The notes under the pieces: model-generated
Seen by the model: the letters and a program-made list of their open reading frames with translations, nothing else
What the model was told of the DNA's origin: nothing
Database searches by the model: none
Shown: positions 3,644-49,734 of the stretch, in pieces
How positions within the stretch are numbered: position 1 is the first letter of the stretch
Layout of the letters: every line of letters begins with the position of its first letter
Source: Acidimicrobiia bacterium
Lineage (GTDB): Bacteria; Actinomycetota; Acidimicrobiia; Spongiisociales; ZC4RG35
Assembly (NCBI GenBank): GCA_036396655.1
Contig: DASWKK010000095.1
Location: 1-62,357 of the forward strand
Reading direction: 5' to 3'
Length of the DNA: 62,357 bases
Made by a program: the position numbers and the translations under genes

Positions 3644-3698
3644 CCACTTGAAGCGATCCGGCAGCACTTTCCGCGGTCAAACTGCTAGACATCAGCCG

Positions 3699-5081
3699 AT
3701 GCGGGGACTCTTTGCGACGGCTGAGCTGGCACCATTTGTGAAAGTCGGCGGTCTCGGCGACGCGGCATCGGGGCTGGTCAAAGCCCTCCGGCGCCAGGAC
3801 ATCGAGGTCGAGGTGGTATTGCCCGACTATGGCTGGCTTCCACTCGAGCAGACCGACGAGCAATCGCTCGACGTTCCCGACTGGGCGGGTCCGGCCCGTG
3901 TCCGTCGCGGCTCGCTCAACGGCTTTGGCAACGTCTCACTGGTCGTCACCCCGACCATGGCCCGTCCCCATCCCTACAACGACGCCGAAGGCCGGGGCTG
4001 GCCCGGCAACGACACCCGATTCTTCTCCTTCTCCGCAGCGGTGGCGGCTCTCGCCAGAGCCGACGCGCCGGACGTGCTTCATCTCAACGACTGGCACACC
4101 GGCGCCGCCCTCGGCTTTCTCTCCGAGCCGCCGCCAACCGTGCTCACCATTCACAATCTGGCCTATCAAGGAGCAGCCGACGGGGCGTGGTTGGACTTGA
4201 TCGCATACCAAGCCCAGGCCTACGAGTGGTATGGGGGCGCCAACCCGTTGACCGGATCGATTGCCCTGGCCGACCGGGTGGTCACGGTCAGCCCCACATT
4301 CGCGGCCGAGGCCCTACGTCCCGCGACGGGTTTTGGGGCGCACGACGCGCTCGCCGCGCGGGGTGACGACTTCTCGGGGATACTCAACGGGATCGACACC
4401 GAAGTGTGGAACCCGGCCGCCGACCCCTACCTCCCGGTCCAATACGACGTTGCCAACGCCGGCCGCAAACGTGAGATCGGTCGTCATCTGTCCGGCGAGT
4501 TGGGTTGGGAGCCGAGCACCGAGCCAATCATCGGCGTGGTGACCCGGCTGACCGATCAGAAAGGGGTGGATCTCGCCCTGGAAGCCGCCGAAGCACTACC
4601 CGACCTCGGCGCCCGCATGGTTCTGCTCGGGTCCGGAGACAAGGATCTCACCGATGAGGCCACCCAGACGGCGGGGCGACTGGCAGACCGTTTCGCCTTC
4701 GTTGAGGGGTACGACGAAGGAATGTCGCACCGCATCTTCGGGGCCGCCGACCTGTACCTGATGCCCAGTCGGTTCGAGCCGGCCGGGCTCACCCAGATGC
4801 AGGCAATGCGCTATGGGGCGATCCCGGTGGTGACTGACGTCGGAGGGCTCCACGACACGGTGACTGATGCCGACGCTGACGGAGAGTTGGGGAATGGCTT
4901 CGTCGCCGAGACGCCCAGCTCAGATGCCGTGGCCGACGCCCTCGAACGTGCAGTCCGGGCCTGGCGCTGGACCAAGAGACGAGGGGAGATTCGGAGGCGA
5001 GGGATGAGCCACGACTGGTCCTGGGACGGCCCGGCAACCCGATATCGCGAGTTGTACAAGGAGATCACCTCGGCTCGGTGA
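3699..5081 (+). CDS. glgA: Glycogen synthase, GT5 family
   Basis: [13 protein letters not shown] (KxGG), [37 protein letters not shown]. Confidence 0.92.
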
Positions 5082-27097: not shown

Positions 27098-27718
27098 ATG
27101 AGATCCAGAGCATTGCTGGCGTTGGCCGTGGTCCTCGCCGCATGCGGCGGCGGGGCCGACGACGACGGAGATGGGGTGGCCAGCCTCGACCAGTCGTCCA
27201 GTACCACCATCAGCGAAGAGATCGAATCCGATCCTGAAGCCGCCACCATCGCCTTCACCGAATGTATGCGAGAGAACGGTATCGAGATGGAGGACCCCAC
27301 CGTCGACGCCGACGGCAACGTGATCCCAGGTCGTCCTACCGACCTCCCCGAGCCCGACGACAACGGACAGGTTCGCGCCGGGAACGGCGAGCTGGGTGAG
27401 GATCTGAGACCCGCCTTTGATGAGTGCGGCGACTTGCTCGATGGAACCGCTTTCGGATTCACTCCCCAGGACCTGACCGAGCTCGAGGACCAACTCCTCG
27501 AACTGGCCGAGTGTCTCCGTGATCAGGGTCTTGATGTCGCCGATCCCGACCTGTCCGATCTGGGCGGTGGTCCCCAGGAGGGAGGGCCGTTCGGGATCGA
27601 CTTCCAGGACCCCGAGGTCCAGGCGGCGATGGACCAGTGCGAGGAGTTCGTACCAAACTTTGCGGGCGAAGGGCCCGGCTCCGGGTTCGGCGCCCCTGGT
27701 GACGGTGACGACCAGTGA
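27098..27718 (+). CDS. Lipoprotein with two Cys-containing internal repeats
   Basis: LAAC lipobox. FTECMRENG..EDP / LAECLRDQG..ADP and AFDEC / AMDQC repeats. Confidence 0.85.
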   Translation: MRSRALLALAVVLAACGGGADDDGDGVASLDQSSSTTISEEIESDPEAATIAFTECMRENGIEMEDPTVDADGNVIPGRPTDLPEPDDNGQVRAGNGELGEDLRPAFDECGDLLDGTAFGFTPQDLTELEDQLLELAECLRDQGLDVADPDLSDLGGGPQEGGPFGIDFQDPEVQAAMDQCEEFVPNFAGEGPGSGFGAPGDGDDQ

Positions 27719-28869
27719 GTCTCGAAGAGAAAGACACACAACCCATGGCCGCACCCGAAACCCGTGAGACGGGCAGTGCGGAGACGTTGAAGGGGGTGTC
27801 GCCCGAGCTGGAGCCGCGACGACGTCGCTGGTGGATCCCGACCCTGATCCTGATCCTGCTCGCCGGTCCCGCCACCTGGTGGTATCTGACGCAATCAGGT
27901 GAGCAGGAAGCCGCCGATACCACCGTCGGGGTCGAACTCGATTTCGCCGAGGTGGTCCTGACCGATCTGGTCGAGAACTCCGAATACGAGGGGACATTGG
28001 GCCGACTCGCCGGCGATCCGGTGAGCGTGCGTGCCGAAGGCACCGTGACCGCATTGCCCGAAGCGGGCACCACGCTGGAACAGGGCGACGTGGTCGCCTG
28101 GGTTGACAACCAGCCCGTTGTCCTCCTCTATGGGGAGCTGCCGATGTGGCGGGAGATGAGAGACGACACCGAGGGGCCCGATGTCCTCCAGCTGGAGACG
28201 GCGCTCACCGCGCTCGGTTACAACGAATCGGAGTCGTTGATGAACGTCGACGAGACCTTCACCGGCGCCACCGCGTCGGTGGTAGAGACATGGCAGGAGG
28301 CGATTGGCGGCGAGGGGGACGGCGTGGTCGGCATCGGCGACGTCGTCTTCGTCTCCGGCCCGGTGACGGTCGACGCCCTGCAGGTGGCGGTCGGCGACCA
28401 GATCGGGGGCAACACCCCGGTCTTCACCACCGCCGGCGAGGAACTCGAGGTCAGCTTCGGCCTCCCCACCTTTGAGCAGGACAACGTGGACGTGGGCGAT
28501 ACGGTGGAGATCACTCTCCCCGACCTGAGCACCGCCACCGGGGCGGTCACCGAGATCGCCACGGTCGCCACCACCCCCGAGGGCGGCGGCGATGTCACCT
28601 TCGAGACGATCGTCGAGCTCGACGACCCTTCCCTTGCCGCTGGCGTCGACGAGGCCCCGGTGATGGTGGCTGTGATCACCGACCGGGCCGATCAGGTGAC
28701 CGCGGTCCCAGTGGAGGCCCTGATCGCCCTGGCCGAGGGTGGGTATGCGGTGGAGGTCGAGGACGGGTCGGGGACAAGGCTGGTCGCCGTCGACCCCGGG
28801 TTCTATGCCGACGGGCTGGTCGAGGTGAACGGGGATGTCGCTCTCGGTGACCGGGTCGTGGTCCCGTGA
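27715..28869 (+). CDS. Membrane-fusion/adaptor-like protein with peptidoglycan-binding domain
   Basis: N-terminal [18 protein letters not shown]...TWQ PG-binding motif, VPVEAL...G adaptor C-terminus. Confidence 0.85.
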
Positions 28870-29564
28870 GCGGCGTGGTGCTCAATCTCGAAGGGGTGCG
28901 GAAGGCCTACCCGGGCACACCCCCTGTGGTCGCGCTCGACGGGGTCGGCTTCAAGATCGAAGCGGGTGAGCTGGTCGGCGTAGTCGGCCCGTCCGGGTCG
29001 GGGAAGTCGACTCTGCTCCACATCATGGGGACATTGGACCGGGCCAGCTCGGGAAGGGTGGAAGTGGTCGGACACGACGTGTCCGCCCTCCCCGATCGGA
29101 AGCTGGCCTCTATCCGCGCCCGGCACATTGGCTTCGTCTTCCAGCAGTTCCATCTCCTCTCCGGCTACACCGCTCTCGACAACGTCGCCGACGGCCTGCT
29201 CTACACCGGGATCCCACTGAGACAGCGTCGGGCGCGGGCACGAGCCGCTTTGGGACGAGTCGGCCTCGATCACCGGCTCGGCCACGTCGCCTCAAAGCTC
29301 TCCGGTGGGGAGCGTCAGCGGGTTGCCATCGCACGTGCGGTAGTGGGAGAGCCCGAGATCCTCCTCGCCGACGAACCGACCGGAAACCTCGATACCCGAA
29401 CGGGGGCCTCCATCGTCGCTCTGCTCGAACATCTCAACCGGACCGGGACCACAGTGGTGGTGATCACCCATGACAGGGAGATCGCCGCGGTGCTGCCTCG
29501 CACGATCGAGATGAGAGACGGCCGAGTGGAAAGCGACCTGCAGGTGGTCGGAGCCCGGTCATGA
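28866..29564 (+). CDS. ABC ATP-binding protein (MacB/LolD-like)
   Basis: [33 protein letters not shown]. Confidence 0.96.
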
Positions 29565-30754
29565 CGGTCACCCTCGAGCCGAGTCGTCTCCATCCCGCCG
29601 ACGTGGGCCGGACCGCATCGGTGGGCCTACGCTCGCGGATGACCCGGGCGGTGCTCTCCGCCCTCGGCATCGCCATCGGCATCGCCTCGATGGTGGCCGT
29701 CCTCGGCCTAAGCGACTCCTCCAAGTCGGAGTTGTTGGCCACCTTGGACCGTCTCGGAACCAACCTGATCACCGTCCAGGCCGGTCAGGGCATCGGGCGC
29801 GGGGCCGGGGAGCTTCCGGAGACGGCGGCGGCGATGATCGCCAGGATCGGGCCGGTCGAGGAGACGGCGGCCGTGGTCAACGTGGATGCCAACGTCTATC
29901 GCACCGACCTGATCCCATCGGACCGAACCAACGGGCTCTCCGTCCAAGCGGTTGACCTCACACTGCTCGACACCCTGGCCGGGACCATGGCCCAAGGGAA
30001 GTGGTTCGACCAGGCCGCCGCGGCGTATCCCACCACGGTGCTCGGTGCGGTGGCGGCGGAACGCCTCGGGGTCAGCGGTCTGCCCGCCCGGGTGTGGCTC
30101 GGTGACCAGTGGTTCACCGTCATCGGCACCCTCGACACCTTCGAGCTCAGCCCCGACCTCGACCGGGCCGCCCTGGTCGGGATGGGCGCCGCCGAGAACC
30201 ACCTCGACTCCGATGTGGTCCCATCGGTGATCCATGTCCGATCTGATCCCGATCACACGGACGATGTGATGGGCGTGCTCGCCGCCACCGCCAACCCGAT
30301 CAACCCCGAGGAGATCGAGGTGAGCCGACCCACCGACGCCCTCGAGGCCAAAGAAGCGGCCAACGACACATTCACCGCATTGTTCCTGGGGCTGGGGGCG
30401 GTGGCCCTGCTAGTGGGCGGGGTGGGTATTGCCAACGTGATGGTGATCTCGGTGTTGGAAAGGAGAGCCGAGATCGGGTTGCGACGTGCATTGGGGGCGA
30501 CCAAGGGCCATGTCGCAGTCCAGTTCCTCGGTGAGGCGCTCCTGCTGTCAGTGATCGGCGGGCTTGCCGGCGTGGCCATCGGATACGGGGTGACCGCCGG
30601 TTGGTCCGCATACAGGGGATGGGATGTGTTGGTGCCCCGGATCGCCCTCCTCGGCGGGTTCGGCGCGGCCCTGATCATCGGGACCCTCGCCGGTTTCTAC
30701 CCAGCGACCAGAGCGGCCCGGATGTCCCCGACCGAGGCCCTCCGCTCGGCCTGA
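29561..30754 (+). CDS. ABC permease (MacB/FtsX type)
   Basis: LGIAIG TM1, large extracytoplasmic loop, [16 protein letters not shown], three C-terminal TM. Confidence 0.95.
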
Positions 30755-33150: not shown

Positions 33151-33344
33151 GCGGCCTCTCGCCGGCGTCCCCCCGGCCCCTCCTGATCGACTAGACAGAG
33201 TTATCGGCGCTACCCGGATTATTCTGAAACCGGCGGAGGGATCGCATGCCGGTCACCGCTCATCGCCATGGGGAAAGGTCCCCAGGCACAAGATGGAACT
33301 CTCGGGTAGGCTCCCCGAGGGAGGCGATCAACGGGGAACGTCAC

Positions 33345-34295
33345 GTGGAGAGACCAGTCCGCCATCTGGTTCGGGTGACCTCAGGGGCGATAACCCTGGT
33401 GGTGATGCTGCTGATGATCCAGATCACCGTGGCATCACCAGCTTTCGCCGCGTCGATCTCGATATCTCCCTCGTCGGGGCTAGCCGGATCATCGGCCACC
33501 ATCAGCGGTACCGACTTCCTTCCACTGTCGGTGGAGCTCTGCTGGGACGGCGAAAACTGCTCCAACCTGGGCACTGCCACTCCTGTTTCCGGGGAGATCA
33601 ACGTCGGCGTCACCATCCCCTCCGGTGCCCTACCAGGTCGACACACGGTGAACGCCTGTCAGCTCGCCGCCGGCTGCACCTCGACCGTCTACGACGTCAC
33701 TGATAGCACGACGGAGACTTCCGCCCCTACCACGTCCCCGCCCACCACCACGTCCACCACGACCACCTCAACGACGACAACAATGCCGTCCACCACTACA
33801 ACGAGACCAAGTTCAGGGACTACCTCACCAACGTCGCCTCCGACCACCGCACCGGTGACCACCTCGAGTGTGCCTACACCGCAAACCACCACGGCCGACA
33901 CCACCCTCGACTCGTCCGTCACATCCACCACGACCGACAACTCGACCACCACGACCGATGGTTCAGCCGTGCTTGCAGCCGCCGCGGGCCAGCCTCCCGC
34001 CGCCGGCTCGGCTCCCTTCTCGCTCGACCTGAGCAAGCTGCGCTTCGGGACAGATCCCGATGCAGTCACTGCCGAGGGTGAGCCCGCTCCCGAAGGCACA
34101 GGCGGCGAGGTCCCGCTGGCCGCGGCGGAGGACGGCGCAACGGTCTCACAACTCAGGTTCGGCAGCGACGCCGCTGCCGCCCCCGGTTTCGCCTTTCCTC
34201 GAATTGGGATATGGCTTGGCTGGCTGGTTCTGGTCGTCGGCTCGTTCGTGGTGATCGTGGGCTTCGAGGAGGTCCAGCGTCGCAAGGAAGGCTGA
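33345..34295 (+). CDS. Surface protein: signal peptide, small Ig-like domain, Thr-rich stalk, C-terminal TM anchor
   Basis: GTG after GGGGAA, AFA cleavage site, long S/T/P tract, IWLGWLVLVVGSFVVIV then RRK. Confidence 0.7.
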   Translation: MERPVRHLVRVTSGAITLVVMLLMIQITVASPAFAASISISPSSGLAGSSATISGTDFLPLSVELCWDGENCSNLGTATPVSGEINVGVTIPSGALPGRHTVNACQLAAGCTSTVYDVTDSTTETSAPTTSPPTTTSTTTTSTTTTMPSTTTTRPSSGTTSPTSPPTTAPVTTSSVPTPQTTTADTTLDSSVTSTTTDNSTTTTDGSAVLAAAAGQPPAAGSAPFSLDLSKLRFGTDPDAVTAEGEPAPEGTGGEVPLAAAEDGATVSQLRFGSDAAAAPGFAFPRIGIWLGWLVLVVGSFVVIVGFEEVQRRKEG

Positions 34296-34319: not shown

Positions 34320-36773
34320 TCAGATCTTTGGAAGCTTGAACCCGGATTTCTCCACGACGTAGTCGCGCGACTCGGACACCATGCGGCGCACCGCGGGCCA
34401 GTCGACGTGGAGAAGCTTGCCCCCACGCTTCATTGCCCGACCGGCGATGAACACGGAGTCGACATTCGAGGTGTCCATCCCCGCCACCACGGCCGCCACC
34501 GGGTCGTTGATCGGGGTGACATTGATCTTGTCGGTGCGGAGCATGATCAGATCGGCCGCCTTCCCCACAGTGAGACTGCCCACCTTGGCCTCCAGCCCGT
34601 TGGCCCGCGCCCCTTCCATCGTGGCGTACCAGAGCACGTCGCGCATGGTGATGGCGGGTCTGCCCGCCTGATCGGCCAGGGCGTGCTGGAGTGAGATCAC
34701 CGAGCGCATCTGGGTGAACATGTCGTTGGGGACGTTGGTCTCGACGTCGATGCTGAGCGACGGGTTGAGGCCACGATCGAGGAACTTCTGGATCGGTGGC
34801 ATCCCGTGGCCCATCATCATCTCCACCGGGGAGGCCAGGGAGACGGTGCCGCCGGTGTCGACGATCATCTGGATCTCGGTGTCGTTGAGGGTGGTGCAAT
34901 GGATGTAGGTAGTGTCGGGACCGAGGAGGCCGGCCTCTCCCATCTCCTGCACCTTCGCATCCTGCCCGTAGGTCCCCACCCCGACATGGGCTGTGATCCG
35001 GGCCCCGGTCTCCCGGGCCAGCTTCCAATGATCGCGGGCCACTTCGAAATCGGTGAACTCGGGGCCGGGCGCGGCCAGGGCCAGCGTCAGCATCTGGTCC
35101 TTCGAAGAGAAATGCTCGGTGGCGGCGCGTACGAACCAGCTGGGCTGACGCTCCTCCCACTTGCCCCACCAGGGGAACCCGTAGGCGAACACTCCCCGCA
35201 GACCCGAGTCGCGCAGCGCCTGGATCACCGCGTCGGTGTGCGCCGGTGAGGCCTGGATGTGGGACCAATCGAGAAGAGTTGTGATCCCGGCGTCGATGGC
35301 GCCGACCGCGGAGACCAGGTTGCCCGCATAGGCGTCCTCTGGTCGGAAGGCGGGGGCCAGAGTGCGGAGCACGAAGGAGATGTAGCTGACTCTTCCCTCG
35401 AGAGGCACATCGGTCCCGATGTTGCGCAGGATCCCCTCCCAGATGTGTCGGTGGCTGTCGACGAAGCCGGGCATGACGATCATTCCCGAGGCGTCGATGA
35501 CCTCGGCGCCGTTGACCGCCAGATTCGGTCCGACCGCGGCGATTCTGTCCCCATCGATCAGGACGTCCGCGTTGGCGAAGTCACCGACCACCGGGTCGAG
35601 GCTGAGCACGATCCCGCCCCTGAACAGTTTGCGCCCGGTGGGGACCACGCCGAAGTCGTTACCCACCGGGTAGAGCGCCGGGAGCTCGGCCGCCTTGGGC
35701 GGCCGGCTGCCGAGGACGATGCGCCGCGCCCGGCGGAAGTTGCGCTTCACCAGCTCCTTGATGTCCCCCACCTGAAACAGGATGATCCCGATCAGGACGA
35801 GCACTCCGATCACCATCGGCCCCACGTCTGGGGGGAGCCCATGGAAGGGGAGCACGGTGATGATCACGGCGAGAAGGATCGAGGAGACCGTGCCGCCGAC
35901 GAACGTGGCCCGACCTCCGGAAAGGGCAGCACCTCCGAGCACGGCGGCGGTAATGCTGTTCAAGGTGTAGCTGGTCCCGATCTGGGCATTGCCCACACCG
36001 GAACGGGTCATTACGAACAGGGCGGCTACTGATGCGAACAGCGCGGAGAGGATCAGCGCTCGCACCCTGACCCAGTTGGTCCGGACTCCGCTCCGCTTTG
36101 CTGACCGCTCGTCGAAACCGACCGCGCTGACCTTGAGCCCGGAGCCGCTGGCATGGAGCCACATGTCGAGCAGACCCGCACCGACCACCACCAGGATGAA
36201 AGCGAGTGGGACAGGCCCGATTCCTCCCCGGAGCAGAGACAAGAACTCGGGGTCGATCGTCCCGCCCGGAGTCGGTCGCAGGGTGAGGGAGATGCCGTCG
36301 AGAATGCTCAGGGTGGCCAGAGTGGCGATGATCGAAGGGATCTTCACTCCCCGCACCAGACCGGCATTGACCAAACCGACTGCCAGTGCGCAGAGAAAAA
36401 TGGTGCCGATACCCGCGAGAAGGGCGCTCGGGGAGGATTCGGGGCGGAGCATGAACGAGGCGATGACGACGGCCAGGCCGATCATGGCGCCGATGGACAG
36501 GTCGAGGTAGCCGACGAGCAGGGCGTGGATCTGACCCATGGTCGCCACGGCGAGAGGAATGGCGATGAGCAGGATATTGACGGTGTTGGTCCGGTTGATG
36601 AACCCCTCGAATTGGGTTTCGGTGTACCAGACCACCCCCAGGATCAACAGGACCTGCAGCGCGACCGGCATCCACAGCCTGACCCTGATCACCTTGCGCC
36701 ACTTGTTCTTGTCCCGAGCATTGCGGAGGACCTTGCGGACCTCCTGACGAGTCCGTTCCAGGAGCCGGCTCAT
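34320..36773 (-). CDS. Fusion: RbsC-type ABC permease + amidohydrolase
   Basis: One frame. Permease (LDLSIGA, GGTALSGG-like NSITAAVLGGAALSGG) is joined by a basic linker to PGFVDSHRH, AHVG, IHC, SIDVE and GSLTVGKAAD. Confidence 0.88.
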   Translation of the reverse strand: MSRLLERTRQEVRKVLRNARDKNKWRKVIRVRLWMPVALQVLLILGVVWYTETQFEGFINRTNTVNILLIAIPLAVATMGQIHALLVGYLDLSIGAMIGLAVVIASFMLRPESSPSALLAGIGTIFLCALAVGLVNAGLVRGVKIPSIIATLATLSILDGISLTLRPTPGGTIDPEFLSLLRGGIGPVPLAFILVVVGAGLLDMWLHASGSGLKVSAVGFDERSAKRSGVRTNWVRVRALILSALFASVAALFVMTRSGVGNAQIGTSYTLNSITAAVLGGAALSGGRATFVGGTVSSILLAVIITVLPFHGLPPDVGPMVIGVLVLIGIILFQVGDIKELVKRNFRRARRIVLGSRPPKAAELPALYPVGNDFGVVPTGRKLFRGGIVLSLDPVVGDFANADVLIDGDRIAAVGPNLAVNGAEVIDASGMIVMPGFVDSHRHIWEGILRNIGTDVPLEGRVSYISFVLRTLAPAFRPEDAYAGNLVSAVGAIDAGITTLLDWSHIQASPAHTDAVIQALRDSGLRGVFAYGFPWWGKWEERQPSWFVRAATEHFSSKDQMLTLALAAPGPEFTDFEVARDHWKLARETGARITAHVGVGTYGQDAKVQEMGEAGLLGPDTTYIHCTTLNDTEIQMIVDTGGTVSLASPVEMMMGHGMPPIQKFLDRGLNPSLSIDVETNVPNDMFTQMRSVISLQHALADQAGRPAITMRDVLWYATMEGARANGLEAKVGSLTVGKAADLIMLRTDKINVTPINDPVAAVVAGMDTSNVDSVFIAGRAMKRGGKLLHVDWPAVRRMVSESRDYVVEKSGFKLPKI

Positions 36774-38365
36774 GGGGTGGGCTCCCTGGTCGGAGCCTTG
36801 GGCATGGCCACCCCGAAGGGGGACCGCCCCGAGCGCGACACCCCGGGACCCCGGACGATGGCTTCGACGATCCGAAGCTCGTTCAGCTCGTCGCCGGGGA
36901 TCTCTTCGACGATGGTCCCTCGTGACATGACCAGCACCCGATCGCACAGCCCGGAGAGCTCGATAGGGTCGCTCGACTTGACCAGAAGGGCGGCACCTGC
37001 GTCTGTCCTCGCTCGCAAAGCCCGGTAGATGTCGAACCTGGAGCCCACGTCCACGCCCTGGGTCGGCTCGTAGGCGAGGATCACCGAGGGCTCACGGAGG
37101 AAGGTCCGGGAAACCGAAACCTTCTGCTGGTTGCCACCGGAAAGGAACTCGACCGGCTGCTCGAGTGACGGAGTACGGATCTCGAGACGCGAGACGAGGT
37201 CCCGAACCGCTTTGCGCTCGGAGCGCCGTCGCAGGAAACCGAAAAGGCTGAACCTGCGGAGGGATTGGATGGTGGAGTTGGCTCGGACCCCGAGCACCGT
37301 GGCGAGGGCTTCGTGCTTGCGATCGCCGGGAAGCAGCATGATCCCGGCGCGGACCGCCTCGTGGGTGGAGATCAGCGTCAGCTCTTTGCCGTCACATACC
37401 ACCCGCCCCGCCCGGGGAGGCGTCCGTCCGGCCAGGGTGTCGAAGAGCTGAGGCTGGCCGTTTCCTTCGGCCCCTGCGATCCCGACCACCTCGCCCGCTT
37501 CCAGCGTGAAGCTGACCGGGCCGAAAGACTGACCCTGGAAGCCATCGACCACCAGCACCTCGCGAGGCTGTTCCGACATCTCCGCCGGGACCGGGAAGGC
37601 GCTCTCGAAGGGACGGCCCACAATCAGCTCGACAAGGTCGTGCTCGGTGGTGGCCCTGGCATCGAAGGTCCCGCGGGTCTTGCCATCGCGGAGCACTGTG
37701 ATCCGATCGGCGATCTCGAGCACCTCGGGAAGACGATGACTGACGTACACCACGCCGACGCCGCGCCTCCTGCACGCTGCCACTGTCCGATGGAGCGATT
37801 CCACTTCGTCCGGCCCGAGTGCCGTTGTCGGCTCGTCGAGCAGGAGCACTTTGGGATCGGAGACCAGGGCCTTGGCCACCTCGAACAACTGGCGTTCAGC
37901 AAGGGTGAGGAACCCAGCCGGGGAATCGGGGAATAGCTCCATATCGAGGTCGAATTCCCCCAACAGCCTCCTGGCCCACTTCTTTCTCCGCCAGAAAGGA
38001 GGTCTGTCCTCGGGTGGCAGCGCCATGTAGAGGTTGTTCTTGACCGGCTGGGCCAGAATCAACGATGTGTCCTGATAGGCCATGGCCAGACCCAGCTTGC
38101 GGGCCAGAGCCGGCGAGTCGGTGCGCAATGTCTTTCCGGCGATGCGCACCGTGCCCCGATCGGGCTCAACGAACCCGCTGGCAATCCCGAGGAGGGTCGA
38201 CTTCCCCGAGCCGTTCTCGCCGACGAGGGCATGGACCTCGCCGGCGCGGCAATCGAAGCTGACGTCGGTCAGCGCCCGGACCGCCCCGAACTGGCGGGAA
38301 ACTCCCGCCAGTTCGAGGACGGTCTCCGCGGTGGTCGACCCCCCTCCGGGACCGCCGTTGGTCAT
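36770..38365 (-). CDS. Sugar-type ABC ATP-binding protein (two NBDs, RbsA-like)
   Basis: GENGSGKST, LDEPT, LSGGNQQKV, EPTQGVDVG. Confidence 0.95.
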   Translation of the reverse strand: MTNGGPGGGSTTAETVLELAGVSRQFGAVRALTDVSFDCRAGEVHALVGENGSGKSTLLGIASGFVEPDRGTVRIAGKTLRTDSPALARKLGLAMAYQDTSLILAQPVKNNLYMALPPEDRPPFWRRKKWARRLLGEFDLDMELFPDSPAGFLTLAERQLFEVAKALVSDPKVLLLDEPTTALGPDEVESLHRTVAACRRRGVGVVYVSHRLPEVLEIADRITVLRDGKTRGTFDARATTEHDLVELIVGRPFESAFPVPAEMSEQPREVLVVDGFQGQSFGPVSFTLEAGEVVGIAGAEGNGQPQLFDTLAGRTPPRAGRVVCDGKELTLISTHEAVRAGIMLLPGDRKHEALATVLGVRANSTIQSLRRFSLFGFLRRRSERKAVRDLVSRLEIRTPSLEQPVEFLSGGNQQKVSVSRTFLREPSVILAYEPTQGVDVGSRFDIYRALRARTDAGAALLVKSSDPIELSGLCDRVLVMSRGTIVEEIPGDELNELRIVEAIVRGPGVSRSGRSPFGVAMPKAPTREPTP

Positions 38366-39711
38366 CCTGCCGGGTACATCAGGGCAAGGACCTCATCAGG
38401 CACCAGGGAGGTGCCGGACACGGTTGGTGTCACCCTGTCCGGGTGGCAGTCGTCCGTCGTGACCTCACGCATCACATGGGGAATCACGATCTCCGAGGGG
38501 ACCGCGTAGCCGGCCAGATTCAACATCTGAGCCGTGACCGCGACCCTCGACTGGAAGTTGCCCCCAGCCGAGTACCAGATGTGGTAGTTCGGGTTGTTGC
38601 GCTCCGCCCAGTCGCAGAACAGTGTCTGCTCGTCGGTGCGGATGGCGATGGTCATCTCGTCGAACTCGACGCCGTCCAACGCCGTGTAGAGACCGTCGGC
38701 GTACTCGTAGCTGAACCCCTTGATGTCGGGATTGGTCGACAGCCATCCGCTGACGACGTCCCGGGCGACATCGTTGGCCCAGAAGGTGTCACCTGTGGTC
38801 GAGTTCGGATCCGCCGGCGGGTTGATCACCTCGATCCCTTCGGCCAGCGTTGGGATGTGGCACTGTTGCCAGCCCAGCGACAGGGCGTTTCCAGGCGTTC
38901 CGCCAAGGACCCCAATCGTGCCCTCGCCAACTCCGTCGTTGATGATCTGGGAGAAGCTCTCACCCAGAGCGCACAGGTCTTCCCCGACGATGGTCAGGTA
39001 GTCGGTGCCGGGAGTGAGTGCCCCATCCTGGCCGGGTAGACCGACCCAACCCGCAGAGTACGGGACGTAGGGGATACCCGCGGCCTCGGCGGCCTTGATG
39101 GCGTCACCGAGTGCCAATCCCCAGTCGGGATAGCCGATGATGAAGGTCACACCACGCTCCACCATGAAGTTGATGTCACCGATCGGCACCGCCGGGTCGG
39201 CTGACCATTGGGCGTCGCGCATCACGATGGTGCCGATCTCGGGATAGGTGAGTGCCTGGAGGATGGCCTCCATGCGGGTCACCTGGCGCCACACGTTGAG
39301 GCCGCCACCGTCTGCGTATCCCATTATCACGTCGCCACCGGTGCCGGTGTCGCACTCGACGGCGTTGGTGTAACACTCGATCGCCTTGTCGATGATGGCC
39401 TGGTCGAGGTCCTGGCTCGCCCGTGCGATTGATGCCAGGACGACGTCCGGCACCTCACCCACCGGGCCGAGAGCCTCCTCCACCAGCGCCGGGTCGGCTG
39501 CCGTCGACTCGCCGAACTCGGCGAGTGGGTCGTCGGAGCCACTAGTGGTCGTGGTCTCCCCAGCAGCCGTGGTGGTGGGCTCGGCGCCCGCCGTAGTCGT
39601 CGGCTCGTCCTCTGTTGCCGTGGTGGTTGGCGCGTCAGCCACGTCGCCCGTACAGGCGGCCATGACGAGTGCCAACACGGCAAGCAGGGCAATAACCCTG
39701 GGTTTCATCAT
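38362..39711 (-). CDS. ABC substrate-binding lipoprotein
   Basis: MAAC lipobox, (E)PTTTA repeats, periplasmic-binding-like domain, GGAGGAGG SD, operon position. Confidence 0.8.
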   Translation of the reverse strand: MMKPRVIALLAVLALVMAACTGDVADAPTTTATEDEPTTTAGAEPTTTAAGETTTTSGSDDPLAEFGESTAADPALVEEALGPVGEVPDVVLASIARASQDLDQAIIDKAIECYTNAVECDTGTGGDVIMGYADGGGLNVWRQVTRMEAILQALTYPEIGTIVMRDAQWSADPAVPIGDINFMVERGVTFIIGYPDWGLALGDAIKAAEAAGIPYVPYSAGWVGLPGQDGALTPGTDYLTIVGEDLCALGESFSQIINDGVGEGTIGVLGGTPGNALSLGWQQCHIPTLAEGIEVINPPADPNSTTGDTFWANDVARDVVSGWLSTNPDIKGFSYEYADGLYTALDGVEFDEMTIAIRTDEQTLFCDWAERNNPNYHIWYSAGGNFQSRVAVTAQMLNLAGYAVPSEIVIPHVMREVTTDDCHPDRVTPTVSGTSLVPDEVLALMYPAG

Positions 39712-39776: not shown

Positions 39777-40835
39777 TCATGGCTCGCCGCCTTCGACGGC
39801 AAGATTCCCATCCCGGCGCCGCCCCGGCCGAGACCGGTCGCGCAGGACTCTTTCGACGGCCTTGATGATCCGGTCGCCCGAGACCAGCATCCCGCCCACG
39901 ATCACCAGTCCGAACACGACGAACTGCAGGGAGGTGGGCAGACCCATGACCCTCATCATCTGGTTGAGCCCGGCGAGGAAGAACGCCGCGGACCAGGTGG
40001 CGATCGGGCTGGCCAGGCCGCCGGTCAAGGAGGCGCCGCCGATGACCACTGCCGCGATCGGCCCGAGCAGGTAAGGGGCCCCGACCGTCACTCCGGGGGA
40101 ACGCAGGTAGGCGGCGAGGAGCACACCGGCGCTGGCGTAGAGGATGGCGGCCACTACGTAGGCCAGCATCTGGTACAGATTCACCCGCAACCCGAGCACC
40201 ATCGAGGCCGCCGGATTGGCCCCGATCACCTGAAACTTCCGTCCCAAGCCGGTGAATCTGAACACGATCATGAGGACGATGGCCAGGACCGCCCCGATCC
40301 AGAAGATCGGGGTCACACCCAGGAAGGTCCCGTTGGCCCAATCGGAAAGACCGGGCGGAACCGGTTTCTGGATGGCGACGGTGGTGTAGTAGCGATTGGC
40401 CACACCCGACCCGACCTGGCCCACCGCCAGCGTGACGATCAGCGCGTTCAGCTTGAGCCCTCCGATCAGGATCCCGTTGAGCAGCCCGATCACAACCGCC
40501 GCCCCCACCGCAGTCAGATAGGCGATCCAGATCCGGTCGTCCGACTGTTGGCCAACCCCGACCATGAGCAGCCCTCCGAGCAGGAAGGTCCCGGGCACAC
40601 TGAGGTCGATGCCACCGGTCATGATCACCAGCATCTGACCCAAGGCGGCGATGGCGAGAAAGGTCCCGAGAGGAGCGATCTGGTCGAGCCCGGCTTTGCT
40701 GAAGGTGGCCGGCGCCCAGATTGACGCAACAACGAGGAGCACGATCAGCGCCAGATAGACCGGCATATACCGAGACCCGACCACGAACGAGGTTACGAAT
40801 GCGGAAGGAGCCTTGGAGGCACGGGGCGTGGTCAT
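39777..40835 (-). CDS. RbsC-type ABC permease
   Basis: TGGIDLSV, GANPAAS, IAAVVIGGASLTGG. Confidence 0.93.
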   Translation of the reverse strand: MTTPRASKAPSAFVTSFVVGSRYMPVYLALIVLLVVASIWAPATFSKAGLDQIAPLGTFLAIAALGQMLVIMTGGIDLSVPGTFLLGGLLMVGVGQQSDDRIWIAYLTAVGAAVVIGLLNGILIGGLKLNALIVTLAVGQVGSGVANRYYTTVAIQKPVPPGLSDWANGTFLGVTPIFWIGAVLAIVLMIVFRFTGLGRKFQVIGANPAASMVLGLRVNLYQMLAYVVAAILYASAGVLLAAYLRSPGVTVGAPYLLGPIAAVVIGGASLTGGLASPIATWSAAFFLAGLNQMMRVMGLPTSLQFVVFGLVIVGGMLVSGDRIIKAVERVLRDRSRPGRRRDGNLAVEGGEP

Positions 40836-42178
40836 CCGACCGCCTCCAGGGCAGGTGGCTCCAGCCCGGCGCTGCGAGCCACGTGGTCACGAGCGGCGTA
40901 AGCAAGCTCGCTGACCCGGGCCATGTCGACACCGACCAGCTCGCCATCCCGCTTCAGCGGCGTCCCGGCGACGAACACCGAGTCGACGTTCGACGTGTCC
41001 ATCCCCCACACCACGGCTCCGATCGGGTCGTTGATGGGAAAAATGTTGGGGGTGTCCGAACGGAGGACGATCACATCTGCCTGTTTGCCCGGAGTGAGCG
41101 ACCCGGTGACGTCGCCGAGGCCGTTGGCCCTGGCGCCTTCGATGGTGGCGTATTCGATGATTCTCCGTGTCGTGAGCAGGTTGGGGACACCGCCCTTGCC
41201 GGCGAGTTTGAGATCGAAGAGGCTGGCATGCTGAATAGATATCACTGCTCGCATCTGGGTGAACATGTCGGTGGGGACGTTGCTCTCGGCATCGACGCTG
41301 AGGCTGGGGCTGATCTGCCGATCGATCAGTTGCTGGATCGGAGGCATCCCGTAGCCCATCATCATCCCCGCCGCCGCTGACAGGGAGAACGAGCCTCCAC
41401 TGTCTGCGATCATCTCGATCTCCTCGTCGCTGAGGGTGGCACAGTTGACATAGGTGGTGTCAGGGCCGAGCAGCCCGGCTTGCGCCATCTCGGCCAGCTT
41501 TCCCCGCTGCTTCTGGTCCCCCACCCCGACGTGCACCGAGATGCGGGCGCCCAATTCACGGGCGAGGCCCCAATCCTCCCGGGTCGACTCTATGGAGGCG
41601 AACTCGGGGCCGGGTGGGGCCAGGGCGAGGGTGAGCAGCTGACCGCCGGTGACGAAATGGGTCCCGGCCAGCCGACGAATCGAATCTGCCCGGGAGGGGT
41701 CCGGCTCACCCCACCACGGGGCACCGTAGGCGAAGACGGCCCTGACGCCTGCTTCGTGATGGGCGGCGATGGCAGCATCGGTGTGCTCGGGTGTGACCTG
41801 GATGTGAGACCAGTCGAGAACCGTAGTGATCCCAGCGTCGAGGGCGCCGAGGAGCCCGACCAGGTTTCCCGCGTGCACGTCCTCGGGACGGTAGAAAGGC
41901 CCGATCTTGCGGGAGAGAGCGCCTGGATCGGTGCCCGCCGATGGAGCCCGATCTCCAAGATTGCGAAACAAGCCCTCCCACACGTGGCGGTGGGTGTCGA
42001 CGAACCCGGGCATCACGATCGTGTCGGAGGCGTCGATCACCTCGGCATTCCCCGCCCTCAGATCGAGACCGACGGCGCTGATGGTCGTCCCGTCGATCAG
42101 CACATCGGCGCGGTGGAAGTTGCCGATCTTCTTGTCGAGGCTGAGCACACAACCGTCTTTGAGCAGGATCCGGCTCAA
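40832..42178 (-). CDS. Amidohydrolase, paralogue of the fused domain
   Basis: PGFVDTHRH, SVHVG, YVNC, SVDAE, GSLTPGKQAD. TTG 42178 is the inferred start. Confidence 0.88.
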   Translation of the reverse strand: MSRILLKDGCVLSLDKKIGNFHRADVLIDGTTISAVGLDLRAGNAEVIDASDTIVMPGFVDTHRHVWEGLFRNLGDRAPSAGTDPGALSRKIGPFYRPEDVHAGNLVGLLGALDAGITTVLDWSHIQVTPEHTDAAIAAHHEAGVRAVFAYGAPWWGEPDPSRADSIRRLAGTHFVTGGQLLTLALAPPGPEFASIESTREDWGLARELGARISVHVGVGDQKQRGKLAEMAQAGLLGPDTTYVNCATLSDEEIEMIADSGGSFSLSAAAGMMMGYGMPPIQQLIDRQISPSLSVDAESNVPTDMFTQMRAVISIQHASLFDLKLAGKGGVPNLLTTRRIIEYATIEGARANGLGDVTGSLTPGKQADVIVLRSDTPNIFPINDPIGAVVWGMDTSNVDSVFVAGTPLKRDGELVGVDMARVSELAYAARDHVARSAGLEPPALEAVG

Positions 42179-42282
42179 CTCACCCGCCGTTTTCCCAGGT
42201 CCAGTTCCATAGCCAATGAACAGTGACACTACACACTGCGACGACATCTCTTCTTCAGATCGGGCTACATGTTCAGTGTTGC

Positions 42283-46123: not shown

Positions 46124-46215
46124 TTGGGTTGGGTCGGTGCGGATATGACCCGGGCAGGCCCGGGGTGGCCTCGCTTCTATGTCGGTCCAGGAGCTCCCCC
46201 CTCCCCGGCTACGCC

Positions 46216-46409
46216 GGTACTCCCCCCAAGACCCCCCTCCCGGCTTCGGGGTACTCCCCCCAACGCTCACTTCGTTCGCTGGGGGGAGAAACGGCTCACT
46301 TCGTTCACTGGGGGGAGAAACAGCTCACTTCGTTCACTGGGGGGAGAAACGGCTCACTTCGTTCGCTGGGGGGAGAAACGGCTCACTTCGTTCACTGGGG
46401 GGAGAAACA
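46216..46409 (+). repeat. Composite repeat copy L: 49-nt C-rich head + five tandem 29-nt units
   Basis: Head 46216-46264. Units GCTCACTTCGTTC(G/A)CTGGGGGGAGAAAC(G/A) start at 46265, 46294, 46323, 46352, 46381, with no spacers. Confidence 0.92.
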
Positions 46410-46422
46410 AGGGTCTTTACGG

Positions 46423-49400
46423 TCAGACGTAGGGGGTGGACGCCATGAGCAGGCCGCGCAGTGGGATCTCGACCCAGTCGGGTCGGTTGTTCAACTCGTA
46501 ACCGAGCTCATAGGCCGCCTTGTCCAACTGGTATGCGTCGAGCATCCACCTCAGATGGCGTTCGTTCTCCGGCACCAGCAGATGCCCGTCGACCGCGTCG
46601 AGGTATCCCCGCAGGAACGAGGCGGCCAGCCACCGGTTTATGGTGTCGGCCCAGTCCGCCAGCAAGGCGGCATGTTCAGCTTCCTCGACCCCGGTCTCGA
46701 TGGCAGTCCGGAGCGCCATCAATGTCGTGTACTGATAGGACCGGAGCATTCCGGCCACATCTCGAAGCGCGATGCGCTTGATGCGCCGCTCCGACAACGG
46801 CCTCTGCGGTTCGCCTTCAAAATCGATCATCACGAAGTCGTTTCCGGTGAAGAGAACCTGGCCCAAGTGGTAGTCACCATGGATCCGGATTCGCCAGGCT
46901 TCGATCTTCTCGGTGGTGAGCGACCCGAGCTGGTGGAGTAACTCCTGTTCCCGTGCCAGAACCTGATCGGCGAGCTCGCCCACGGCTGGGGTCAATGTGG
47001 AACGCTGACGGCGCAGCAGGTTGAAGCTGGTGCGGATGGATGCCCGTGTCGATTGGTACAACGCTCGCTGATAGAGAGTCGTCATCCGCTCCGGCGCGAA
47101 TACCGGATCGTCCGGCTCCGAGGCGAGTGCGATGTGCATCTCCCCCGTCCTCTGACCGAGCAGCGTCGTCTCGATCAGCGTCACCCCCATGAGGCTGTGG
47201 GCCTCTTCCAACTCCTCGTCGCTGATGTCCAACGGGTGCCTCATCGTTGGAGGAGGGCCGAGCTCGTCGCGTCGCGCCGCCACCTGTTCCAAAATGAGAC
47301 CCATCGAGTCGAGCATGTGCGACCAGGCGTCGCCCTGATTCGGCACGTAGCTCTGAATCAGTGCAAAGGCTGCTTGCTGGCCATCGATGTTGGCGCCGAT
47401 CACACCACGGGTGGATGGCGTGTTGTGGAAGCCGGCCCGTTCCGTCAGGAATTGGCCCACCTCGACGTCCGGGTTCGACCCGGGCTCGACCTTGCGAAAC
47501 AGCTTCATTATCAGCCGCTCGCCGAAGATCACAGAGGTGTTGGATTGCTCGACGGCGCCAACCTTGACCGGCTCGTCAACTATCTCGGCAGGCAGCGTGC
47601 GGCAGCCCGCAATGCGGGCGGGCGCCAGGGTCACGCTGCGCCCCTTCAGTTTCCTCCGGGTAGCAGCCAGTTCGATCAGGGCAGGGGGAAACGAGGGGTC
47701 GAAGGTGGCGTCGTACAAGACGCCGGTCTCCGAGCTCGCATGTACTTCGGCAATGACCGAAGCAGGCTCGTCCTGGACGATGCGCTCGGCATCGACCCCG
47801 GTAGCGAGAGCGATCGGCATCACATAGATGTCTCGGTCCCGTTCCACATACTCCAACTCCAGAAAGGCGACAACGGCGTCGGTGCCAGGTAGCTCCAGCC
47901 GATCCACAAGGTGCCCGCTCCTGATGGTCTCCGTCTTGCTTCGATACCAACGACGACTCTGGATGTCGGCCACGAGAGCTCGTTCCAATTGAACCCGAGC
48001 CCGAAACACACCTCCGATCTCGCCCCGGACGGTGATCCTGGGCAGGCCCGGTGCCTCCTCGGCGGCCGTGCCGCTCTTGGTCAGGCCAAACCAGTAGAAG
48101 TCATGGGGACCGACGGCGAGCAGATAGGGAGTCGACGCGACGACAGGGAACCGGGTCCGACCGAACAACTCCACCGGCTCCGACCCTTCGAAGGCGGTCA
48201 GGTCGATCTCGACCGGCTGAGTGTGACGGGACAGGTTGGCCACCACCAGAACCGAGCGGTCCCCAAGGGTCCTCAGGTAGGTCAACACCTTGGGGTTCTC
48301 GCTGTGAAGGAACTCGATCTCACCCCGGGACAGCTCGGGCATGCTCTTGCGCAACGAAAGGGCTCGCTTCACCCACCACCAAAGCGAGTTGGGGTTGTCC
48401 CGCAGCACCTCGACATTGACCGACTCGTAGTGATACTCGGGGTCGGTGACCACCGGAAAGTAGAGACTCTGAGGGTTGGCGACCGAGAAACCGGCGTTGC
48501 GGTCACCCGACCACTGCATCGGGGTCCTCACCCCGTTGCGGTCACCGAGATAGACGTTGTCTCCCATGCCGATCTCATCCCCGTAGTAAAGGACAGGTGT
48601 GCCGGGCAGCGAGAGAAGGAGGGCGTTCATCAGCTCGATCTCACGGCGGTTATTGCCGAGGAGCGGGGCGAGTCGGCGTCGGATCCCGACGTTGATCCTC
48701 GCCTGAGGATCGCTGGCATACACCCGGTACATGTAGTCACGCTCCTCGTCGGTGACCATCTCCAAGGTGAGCTCGTCGTGATTGCGCAAGAAGATCGCCC
48801 ATGCCGACGACTCGGGAATCGGTGGCGTCTGCTCCAGGATGTCGATGATCGGAAAGCGGTTCTCCATGCGCAGGGCCATGAACAGCCTCGGCATCAGCGG
48901 GAAGTGAAAGCACATATGGCATTCGTCGCCCTGGCCGAAGTACGCCGCGGAATCCTCGGGCCATTGATTGGCCTCCGCAAGCAGCATTCGATCCTGGTAT
49001 TTCGAGTCGACCCGGGCTCGGAGCTTCTTCAGGAACTCGTGGGTCTCGGGCAGGTTCTCACACATGGTCCCCTCCCGCTCGTAGAGGTAAGGAACTGCAT
49101 CGAGACGGAGACCGTCGACACCGGCTTCGAGCCAGAAGTCGAGAGCATCGAACACCGCGTCGTGAACTGCCGGATTATCGAAATTGAGGTCGGGCTGATG
49201 GGAGAAGAAGCGATGCCAGTAGTAGGCGTTCGCCACCGGGTCCCAGGCCCAGTTCGAGGTCTCGGTGTCTTGAAAGATGATCCGGGCGTCCCGGTAGCGC
49301 TCGGGATCGTCAGACCAGACGTAGAAATCTCGCTCGGGGCTGCCGGGGGGTGCTTTCCGCGCCGTCTGAAACCAGGGGTGCTGGTCGGATGTGTGATTGA

Positions 49401-49734
49401 TCACCAACTCGGTGATGACCTTCAAGTCCCTTTTGTGCGCCTCTCTCAGAAACTGGCGAAAGTCGGTCATGGTCCCGTAAGAGGGGTTGATCGCCTTGTA
49501 GTCGGCGATGTCGTAGCCGTCATCGCGGAGAGGCGATGGATAGAAGGGCAGCAACCACAAAGCGGTTACCCCGAGATCCCTCAGATAGTCCAGCTTGGAG
49601 GTGAGGCCCTTGAAGTCACCGATCCCGTCACTGTTGGCGTCGGCAAAGGCCCGGACGTGAACCTCGTAGATAACCGCGTCGTGGTACCAGGCGTCGATAC
49701 CGCCTGGGTCATGGGGGTCAGCGGAAGGAGTCAA
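46423..49734 (-). CDS. treS: Trehalose synthase-maltokinase fusion (TreS-Mak)
   Basis: WYHDAVIYE, DGLRLDAVPYL, FLRNHDELTLE, then VEQSNTS and RIHGDYHLGQVL...DFEGEP kinase domain. TTG 49734 after GAGGAG. Confidence 0.95.
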   Translation of the reverse strand: MTPSADPHDPGGIDAWYHDAVIYEVHVRAFADANSDGIGDFKGLTSKLDYLRDLGVTALWLLPFYPSPLRDDGYDIADYKAINPSYGTMTDFRQFLREAHKRDLKVITELVINHTSDQHPWFQTARKAPPGSPERDFYVWSDDPERYRDARIIFQDTETSNWAWDPVANAYYWHRFFSHQPDLNFDNPAVHDAVFDALDFWLEAGVDGLRLDAVPYLYEREGTMCENLPETHEFLKKLRARVDSKYQDRMLLAEANQWPEDSAAYFGQGDECHMCFHFPLMPRLFMALRMENRFPIIDILEQTPPIPESSAWAIFLRNHDELTLEMVTDEERDYMYRVYASDPQARINVGIRRRLAPLLGNNRREIELMNALLLSLPGTPVLYYGDEIGMGDNVYLGDRNGVRTPMQWSGDRNAGFSVANPQSLYFPVVTDPEYHYESVNVEVLRDNPNSLWWWVKRALSLRKSMPELSRGEIEFLHSENPKVLTYLRTLGDRSVLVVANLSRHTQPVEIDLTAFEGSEPVELFGRTRFPVVASTPYLLAVGPHDFYWFGLTKSGTAAEEAPGLPRITVRGEIGGVFRARVQLERALVADIQSRRWYRSKTETIRSGHLVDRLELPGTDAVVAFLELEYVERDRDIYVMPIALATGVDAERIVQDEPASVIAEVHASSETGVLYDATFDPSFPPALIELAATRRKLKGRSVTLAPARIAGCRTLPAEIVDEPVKVGAVEQSNTSVIFGERLIMKLFRKVEPGSNPDVEVGQFLTERAGFHNTPSTRGVIGANIDGQQAAFALIQSYVPNQGDAWSHMLDSMGLILEQVAARRDELGPPPTMRHPLDISDEELEEAHSLMGVTLIETTLLGQRTGEMHIALASEPDDPVFAPERMTTLYQRALYQSTRASIRTSFNLLRRQRSTLTPAVGELADQVLAREQELLHQLGSLTTEKIEAWRIRIHGDYHLGQVLFTGNDFVMIDFEGEPQRPLSERRIKRIALRDVAGMLRSYQYTTLMALRTAIETGVEEAEHAALLADWADTINRWLAASFLRGYLDAVDGHLLVPENERHLRWMLDAYQLDKAAYELGYELNNRPDWVEIPLRGLLMASTPYV

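Follow-up and report, generated by a model that had tools for sequence, protein, structure and literature searches.

We analysed a 62,357-nt stretch of DNA from an Acidimicrobiia bacterium (contig DASWKK010000095.1 of assembly GCA_036396655.1; the whole stretch is referred to as the window) and found that the second permease of an ATP-binding cassette (ABC) importer, permease-2, is fused in frame to a complete amidohydrolase domain, here called AH2. This architecture is kept in at least 80 species. The reading that we favour, with a probability of about 0.55, is that of a covalently tethered transporter–enzyme unit that hydrolyses the imported compound beside the importer, possibly with AH1, a free paralogue of AH2 encoded in the same operon, as its partner.

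The fusion gene occupies positions 34320..36773 on the minus strand as one open reading frame (ORF) of 817 aa plus stop, read from an ATG; the maximal ORF of this frame, from a GTG at 36947, comprises 875 aa. All segments of the gene are on the minus strand. Residues 1–34 (36672..36773) are assigned to basic cytoplasmic N-terminal helices with 12 Lys or Arg within the first 30 residues, and residues 35–336 (35766..36671) to the membrane domain, with 10 helices and a coupling loop at ~204–236 predicted from hydropathy and AlphaFold2. Residues 337–380 (35634..35765) constitute the linker, in which ~26 low-confidence residues come after a basic helical extension, and residues 381–817 (34323..35633) constitute AH2, an N-terminal beta-sandwich and a (beta/alpha)8 barrel. 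Pfam matches residues 64–328 to BPD_transp_2 (E 1.9e-19), the domain of an RbsC-type permease, and residues 432–780 to Amidohydro_1 (PF01979, E 3.6e-30; model positions 1–344/345). Within the linker, the basic stretch KELVKRNFRRARRIVLG corresponds to residues 339–355, DIKELVKRNFRRARRIVLG is the basic part by which the last membrane helix is extended, and a partly conserved YPxGxDF lies within the low-confidence part, residues 355–380. The original prediction for this DNA had described an 817-aa frame in which an RbsC-like permease is joined through a basic linker to a complete amidohydrolase that keeps HxH, the beta5 and beta6 His and the beta8 Asp and reads HVGV, as the last gene of a five-gene importer operon. 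ORF and Pfam analyses agree on the parts of the frame, all of these motifs could be located in the fusion sequence, and gene order and domain matches bear out its position in the operon.

The junction between both halves is recurrent. By searching 5.8 billion proteins, we retrieved more than 120 protein clusters of 806–823 aa and 75–98% identity that carry both domains; they originate from JGI, ENA, NCBI and Logan assemblies, and product names in the JGI automated annotations mention both halves of the fusion. We further performed a genome scan with one genome per species, which yielded at least 80 loci in metagenome-assembled genomes (MAGs) of uncultured Acidimicrobiia/Actinomycetota, mostly from soil; fusions of 815–817 aa in the same operon were also present in MAGs labelled Jiangellaceae and Egicoccus. 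The junction check in homologues that accompanied the original prediction found no stop between permease and hydrolase: the halves are in frame in 80/80 loci, three closed chromosomes included, so homologues are by no means always split. The only seemingly split homologues, P0122, P0124, P0133 and P0268, were discarded as fragments; the tails of P0122, P0124 and P0133 are Arg/Ser/Pro-rich and resemble out-of-frame translation, so that these three look like frameshifted sequences. An assembly or sequencing artefact that joined two neighbouring genes through a lost stop or a frameshift might draw on these few frameshift-like database fragments, but it would have to account for a frame kept in 80/80 independent species-level assemblies (from short reads, with three closed chromosomes), for more than 120 full-length protein clusters and for a linker under purifying selection, and we reject it as having a practically negligible chance. 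The DNA at the junction contains no homopolymer run.

From 600 random gene pairs, we determined the ratio of nonsynonymous to synonymous differences (pN/pS) along the fusion gene. The linker (~336–380) yields 0.33 and the membrane domain 0.34, and the linker is therefore translated in this frame and constrained. These values also bear on whether the fusion is genetic only, so that internal initiation or proteolysis within the linker would release a soluble amidohydrolase. In-frame GTG codons within the linker (V369, V375 and V376) and a tether that is predicted to be disordered, and possibly accessible to proteases, would permit such a release. By eye, however, no ribosome-binding sequence is evident ahead of these three codons, the linker is as constrained as the membrane domain, and the gene has been re-split in 0/80 species, which together make release of a soluble enzyme very improbable.

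The distribution of the fusion was assessed in a HMMER search of 1.84 billion cluster representatives (clustered at 50% identity). Among the best 150 matches, a single full-length fused cluster was found (P0121, 822 aa, 73% identical), and apart from junction-spanning fragments every other relative of the hydrolase half is a stand-alone protein of at most 59% identity; stand-alone relatives reach 66% identity in a later profile search. Judged from these searches, the fusion is narrowly distributed and arose once. One genome harbours a tandem second copy of the operon (L073:2514-13452), in which numerous frameshifts break up the upstream copy and an intact permease-2::hydrolase gene comes after it; the broken copy represents either a decaying duplicate or long-read errors.

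The operon consists of five minus-strand genes, transcribed in the order AH1, permease-1, binding protein, ATPase and fusion, and this order is kept wherever the flank allows in the 80 loci. Overlaps of 4 nt (ATGA) join AH1 to permease-1, the binding protein to the ATPase and the ATPase to the fusion, and a promoter and terminator scan returned nothing beyond shuffled expectation. AH1 (40832..42247, minus strand, 471 aa) matches NF006056/PRK08204 with 497 bits at a cutoff of 391. Permease-1 (39777..40835, minus strand, 352 aa) is of the RbsC/AraH type with no added domain (BPD_transp_2, E 2.7e-26) and has weak NCBIfam matches to AraH and RbsC. The ATPase (36770..38365, minus strand, 531 aa) carries two nucleotide-binding domains (NBDs) in one chain, as in RbsA and AraG (ABC_tran twice, E 1.1e-44); its best NCBIfam matches are AraG, XylG and RbsA, every one under cutoff.

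The substrate-binding lipoprotein (38362..39708, minus strand, 448 aa) matches Peripla_BP_4 in Pfam (E 1.8e-13), and its start was set by identical 448-aa database entries. A signal peptide with a Cys lipobox precedes a Thr-rich tether (~20–57) and an RbsB-like two-lobe domain. Its AlphaFold2 model has a predicted local distance difference test score (pLDDT) of 83 and a predicted template-modelling score (pTM) of 0.83, and Foldseek aligns it with receptors for ribose, arabinose, galactofuranose, fructose and 5-methylthioribose (template-modelling score TMt up to 0.83, 12–20% identity). Besides the lipobox Cys19, residues C112, C119, C246, C283, C365 and C421 are invariant in 56 orthologues, a pattern that suggests three disulfides and would be unusual for RbsB-type receptors.

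Thus, PF02653 permeases, a single-chain double-NBD ATPase and a receptor of the Peripla_BP_4/RbsB fold occur in one operon, which is what defines a CUT2 importer. The system resembles the known CUT2 importers (RbsABC, AraFGH, XylFGH; TCDB 3.A.1.2) in its permeases, its double-NBD ATPase and its RbsB-fold receptor. It differs from them in that two different permease subunits are present, one of which bears a 437-residue enzyme, that NCBIfam scores to the named sugar systems are far under cutoffs, and that the receptor is ~100 residues longer and has conserved cysteines.

We then assigned AH2 to a family and mapped its active site. It belongs to NCBIfam NF006056 (PRK08204, 'hypothetical protein') with 514 bits at a cutoff of 391. 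Compared with the named equivalogs for 5′-methylthioadenosine/S-adenosylhomocysteine (MTA/SAH), 5′-deoxyadenosine, 8-oxoguanine and guanine deaminases and for chlorohydrolases, its best score is 162 bits at a cutoff of 522, and the remaining ones lie further under their cutoffs. The AlphaFold2 model of this block has pLDDT values of mostly 85–98, and Foldseek (TMt 0.72–0.90, 19–25% identity) places it next to AtzA, MTA/SAH deaminases, Vcz, TrzN, 8-oxoguanine deaminase and NatAM. A profile of 129 NF006056 representatives found no family member among the solved structures; the nearest are AtzA, MTA/SAH deaminases, 8-oxoguanine deaminase, TrzN and chain 7ww2, which its depositors name 8-oxoguanine deaminase / hydroxydechloroatrazine ethylaminohydrolase in an entry entitled isocytosine deaminase Vcz. 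Stand-alone family members P0129, P0130, P0136 and P0277 (L086:8001-9539; PF10518) carry twin-arginine translocation (TAT) signal peptides and are probably exported.

The residues that characterize the active site were located on the minus strand and counted in the 129 family representatives. The HxH metal-ligand motif H441-R-H443 of strand beta1 (35445..35453) is conserved in 128/129 (H441) and 129/129 (H443), the beta5 His of H596-V-G-V599 (34977..34988) in 104/129, the beta6 His H625 (34899..34901) in 127/129 and the beta8 Asp D676 (34746..34748) in 126/129. E651 (34821..34823), an acidic residue between beta6 and beta8, is Glu in 102 and Asp in 20 of the 129, and D502 (126/129) and H512 (119/129) are further conserved. 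In the fused sequences, H441, H443, H596, H625 and D676 are invariant (81/81). Because all 19 family-conserved residues are unchanged in 81/81 fused domains, AH2 looks catalytically competent. It is also the slowest-evolving part of the fusion (pN/pS 0.19, mean pairwise identity 0.84); for the membrane domain, we determined a mean column identity of 0.80 over 81 sequences.

The motifs of classical deaminases are replaced. HVGV, in which Val occupies the site of the HxxE Glu, aligns on the H-x-x-E of 4f0r and 4dyk (MTA/SAH deaminases) and of AtzA. The original prediction had regarded this sequence as a peculiarity of the protein, a view that we abandon: position 599 is V, G, F, A, D or C across the 129 representatives, and loss of the HxxE Glu is therefore a trait of the whole PRK08204 family and not of the fusion. 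Since the HxxE that marks the deaminase/triazine-hydrolase group is lacking, we do not file AH2 as a deaminase or dechlorinase. In addition, the deaminase 'PHAPY' has become PGPEF, with Gly570 in place of its His, and the His of 'HCPxSN' is lost, with Glu651 at the Asn position in the alignment to 4f0r, which makes E651 a candidate replacement acid/base. Binuclear amidohydrolases of the urease, dihydroorotase and hydantoinase type have a carboxylated Lys or a bridging Glu on strand beta4. Lys is not among the common residues of family columns 560–576, as far as sequence alone can tell. E572 is invariant in the fusions and Glu in just 47/129 family representatives.

We compared this arrangement with the ATZ/TRZ-like enzymes and with NatAM. 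AtzA, TrzN, MTA/SAH and 8-oxoguanine deaminase and Vcz have the fold (TMt ~0.8–0.9), HxH and the His/His/Asp set in common with AH2, whereas AH2 has Val599, Gly570 and Glu651 in place of the deaminase motif residues and is only 19–25% identical. NatAM (PDB 6SJ0-6SJ2; Foldseek E 7e-22, ~21% identity) is a structural neighbour of AH2 in which zinc is bound by the HxH pair, the beta5 His and the beta8 Asp and in which Ala256 occupies the HxxE Glu site; it is a dimer and catalyses a benzoxazole-forming ring closure, not deamination, in nataxazole biosynthesis (PMC7204872). Its substrate-binding Glu321 lies 24 residues ahead of the beta8 Asp (PMC7204872), and E651 and D676 of AH2 are spaced by 25, a likeness of spacing and not of residue alignment. 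Unlike AH2, NatAM is without a link to a transporter and serves a natural-product cluster as a biosynthetic cyclase. Because HxxE, PHAPY and HCPxSN are all replaced, and by analogy with NatAM, a chemistry other than classical deamination, as the original prediction had proposed, is plausible for AH2.

On which side of the membrane AH2 resides was derived from the topology of permease-2. Hydropathy and the AlphaFold2 model agree on ten membrane helices; loop 204–236 has the character of an ATPase-coupling helix and is separated from the C-terminus by four helices, and the last helix runs to about residue 354, with 8 Lys or Arg just outside the membrane. The C-tail of permease-1 is likewise basic, and AH1 and AH2 are without the signal peptides found in some relatives. 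By the positive-inside rule, we infer that the C-terminus of permease-2 and with it the hydrolase are cytoplasmic. The opposite arrangement, in which the hydrolase would process a precursor outside the cell prior to uptake, gains some credit from several stand-alone family members that carry TAT-type signal peptides and can thus work outside the cytoplasm. It would nevertheless have to override the ten helices, the basic N-terminus, the four helices after the coupling loop, the 8 Lys or Arg following the last helix and the similarly basic C-tail of permease-1, and we regard it as extremely unlikely.

The same model assigns low confidence to residues 355–380 (~26 residues), which suggests a tether that is perhaps flexible and would provide proximity rather than a sealed channel. 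The original prediction had placed hydrolysis at the cytoplasmic exit of the transporter. The cytoplasmic side is in accord with the helices, the basic N-terminus and the Lys and Arg after the last helix, and the flexible-looking tether suggests closeness to the transporter rather than a sealed passage at its exit. A more tightly integrated arrangement, in which AH1/AH2 would dock under the permeases beside the ATPase and take the cargo directly, and in which occupancy would feed back on the ATPase, appears distinctly unlikely to us. If it were realized, uptake and hydrolysis would be obligatorily coupled in an ABC counterpart of group translocation that uses a non-deamination metallohydrolase chemistry.

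Several ABC importers carry fused domains: OpuA and GlnPQ have a receptor on the permease, and MetN, ModC and MalK a regulatory domain on the ATPase. Those domains either capture substrate extracellularly or exert regulation from the ATPase, which sets them apart from AH2, and we know of no catalytic enzyme on the cytoplasmic end of an ABC permease. A literature search across 8 million papers found no description of a permease–amidohydrolase fusion or of an enzyme-fused ABC importer, in line with the original prediction, which had likewise named no characterized fusion of this kind. In analogy to the C-terminal domains of MetN and ModC, AH2 could be a ligand sensor that slows the pump upon binding cytoplasmic substrate or product. 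Fused regulatory domains are generally known on ABC importers, and AH2 is attached via a helix that is continuous with the last membrane helix. The known regulatory domains, however, reside on the ATPase and not on the permease. Moreover, neither the metal ligands nor the catalytic His and Asp vary in any of the 81 sequences, and it is the free paralogue that degenerates, a pattern that fits a working enzyme; the sensor is left with slim odds.

A physical link between an importer and an enzyme of this superfamily has a precedent in the 'membrane transport metabolons'. The E. coli allantoinase AllB binds and stabilizes the allantoin transporter AllW, mainly by protecting it from degradation (PMC10163214). 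AllB–AllW and the fusion are alike in that an amidohydrolase-superfamily enzyme is physically with an importer, in the case of AllB the importer of its substrate, which depends on the enzyme (PMC10163214). They differ in that AllB binds AllW non-covalently, that AllW is a secondary carrier and not an ABC system, and that AllB is of the dihydroorotase/hydantoinase type. This precedent can be turned towards a reading in which fusion serves assembly, stability or stoichiometry only: the permease would anchor the enzyme or be shielded by it from degradation, and the cargo would mix into the cytoplasm first. Protection of AllW as the main effect of AllB (PMC10163214), the long, low-confidence tether and the fact that other members of the enzyme family act as free proteins all suit it. 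Against it, at least 80 species have retained the fusion together with a linker under constraint, and translational coupling within the operon already fixes stoichiometry, so that the fusion exceeds what co-expression needs; we consider it unlikely, if still a serious contender.

AH1, as a paralogous and often degenerate gene of the operon, is new relative to the original prediction. It is 56% identical to fusion residues 381–817, and in the window it has N at the site of H625 (beta6 His), G at E651 and Y at H656. We compared 56 AH1 sequences, 55 from the loci and one from the window. In 19/56, the beta6 His and/or the beta8 Asp is missing, in several combinations, and 14 orthologues have Gly, Ala or Glu instead of the beta8 Asp; one further AH1 of the 56 is truncated ahead of HxH. 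The alignments are gap-free around the degenerate positions. AH1 evolves ~3× faster than the fused domain, with a nonsynonymous divergence (dN) of 0.34 vs 0.11 and a mean pairwise identity of 0.58 vs 0.84, and its pN/pS of 0.48 shows that purifying selection persists. We propose that AH1 is a partner subunit of the tethered AH2 and often non-catalytic, because two permeases carry one tethered hydrolase and solved relatives are oligomeric; AtzA, for instance, is a hexamer (title of 4v1x). By analogy with such relatives, a lone tethered domain would plausibly need a partner subunit.

Combining these data, the favoured tethered unit would operate as follows. A CUT2-type importer with a lipoprotein receptor, two different permeases and one double-headed ATPase would carry on the cytoplasmic C-terminus of permease-2 an intact hydrolase of the mononuclear-metal type, connected via the helical extension and the ~26-residue tether. 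Cargo delivered by the binding protein would enter the cytoplasm next to the tethered hydrolase and be hydrolysed immediately; this would trap the compound inside the cell and keep its free concentration low. The fusion would fix the enzyme:transporter ratio at 1:1. AH1, synthesized from the same translationally coupled operon, would join the one tethered domain as its partner, which in roughly one third of species would be catalytically degenerate. Without the HxxE Glu, a different arrangement of the proton shuttle is to be expected. Architecture, fold, intact residues, conservation and constraint on the reading frame are observed as described above; that the cargo is the substrate of the enzyme, that the arrangement brings a kinetic benefit, that AH1 pairs with AH2 and that the chemistry differs from deamination, we infer.

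Several findings weigh against this reading. The AlphaFold2 model of the membrane domain is weak (pLDDT 30–80), and the topology comes mainly from the positive-inside rule. The ATPase fills the space beneath the permeases and direct hand-over is not indicated; together with the low-confidence tether, this argues for proximity and not for a sealed channel. AH1 may simply catalyse a second hydrolytic step, since all five core residues are kept in 36/56 orthologues. The cargo is poorly delineated by homology, as the binding protein has no NCBIfam match and is only 12–20% identical to solved sugar receptors, and the flanks of the operon in the window are housekeeping genes (rhomboid, DUF998, septum-formation protein) that are uninformative on the substrate. 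Five stand-alone relatives of 57–66% identity occur in heterogeneous contexts with no shared substrate, and a literature search found no characterization of any NF006056/PRK08204 member.

Weak clues to the substrate come from the receptor, the enzyme family and the gene neighbourhoods. Judging by the receptor fold, part of the substrate may be polar and resemble a sugar or polyol, and the enzyme family suggests that a C–N or C–O bond on a nitrogen-containing group is attacked. A sequence search of the PDB with the binding protein and the permease gave no useful match. Within the window, no Rfam family, riboswitches included, reached its threshold; upstream of AH1, SpR20 scored 21.6 bits at a cutoff of 45, which we judged to be a weak chance match. 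Other neighbours in the window, an AidB-like acyl-CoA dehydrogenase, DUF4126 and an unannotated Thr-rich secreted protein, are uninformative as well.

In 37/80 loci, an accessory cluster beside the operon encodes an M24 hydrolase, E1 alpha and beta subunits of the pyruvate-dehydrogenase type and a third PRK08204 paralogue, joined in 27 loci by a PuuR-like regulator with a helix-turn-helix and a cupin domain. Examples of this set are found at L034:1-4383 (minus) and 12503-13117 and at L047:12635-17312 and 3626-4237; the third paralogue in L047 scores 606 bits against NF006056. The best matches of the M24 hydrolase, far below threshold, are DddP, PepQ and DoeA. This 62-kb window lacks the accessory cluster, whose genes suggest that a small nitrogen-containing compound is catabolized.

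The contexts of the five stand-alone relatives comprise a cluster for pterin, para-aminobenzoate (pABA) and 4-(hydroxymethyl)-2-furancarboxaldehyde phosphate (4-HFC-P) synthase, an aromatic-catabolism-like cluster, FAD oxidoreductases and two uninformative ones. The first is represented by L082:7258-9356 (also L083 and L084), where a relative with 62% identity to AH2 lies directly 3′ of an MfnB-type 4-HFC-P synthase in a cluster with genes for pABA synthesis, a pterin-binding protein resembling dihydropteroate synthase (DHPS), pterin-4a-carbinolamine dehydratase, DUF447 and hydantoinase_A/AA_kinase; it is a neighbourhood of the methanopterin/methanofuran cofactor type. Unfused family members adjoin CUT2-type ABC genes in L093 and L087. 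In L087:8001-10395, L088:7763-10157 and L093:2334-4688, a two-domain glyoxalase/VOC protein (~295–298 aa) is encoded behind a stand-alone amidohydrolase; this pair occurs in two unrelated contexts and seems to be recurrent. L093 additionally encodes a GntR regulator and a CUT2-type binding protein and ATPase.

Whether bacterial importers pass their cargo straight to the first catabolic enzyme has long been asked and is difficult to test, as the complexes involved are usually weak and transient. Here, the link is covalent across at least 80 species and offers a defined, expressible construct for coupling tests. The fusion also provides an entry point into the uncharacterized NF006056/PRK08204 family with its thousands of members, whose altered active site suggests new chemistry, and AH1 is a candidate for a natural pseudoenzyme partner in the amidohydrolase superfamily. 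If the substrate is an abundant nitrogen compound of soil, the system would inform on the nutrition of uncultured Acidimicrobiia.

Further features of the window lie outside the operon. Convergent with the fusion gene, positions 33246-34295 (plus strand) encode a 349-aa protein with a Thr/Ser/Pro-rich region and a C-terminal membrane anchor, for which Pfam returned no match. Three overlapping genes at 27715-30754 (plus strand), encoding a 384-aa membrane-fusion-like protein, a 232-aa ABC ATPase and a 397-aa FtsX/MacB-type permease as judged by eye, presumably specify a MacAB-type exporter. A 34-bp unit (1.9 copies, 46196-46263) and, directly behind it, a 29-bp unit (5.0 copies with 95% matches, 46265-46408) make up a repeat region at 46196-46408, situated between the DUF4126 gene and the beginning of a large minus-strand ORF. 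This 1211-aa ORF (46423-50058) we take, by eye, to be a trehalose synthase with a maltokinase-like C-terminal domain; trehalose synthase–maltokinase fusions are common in Actinomycetota.

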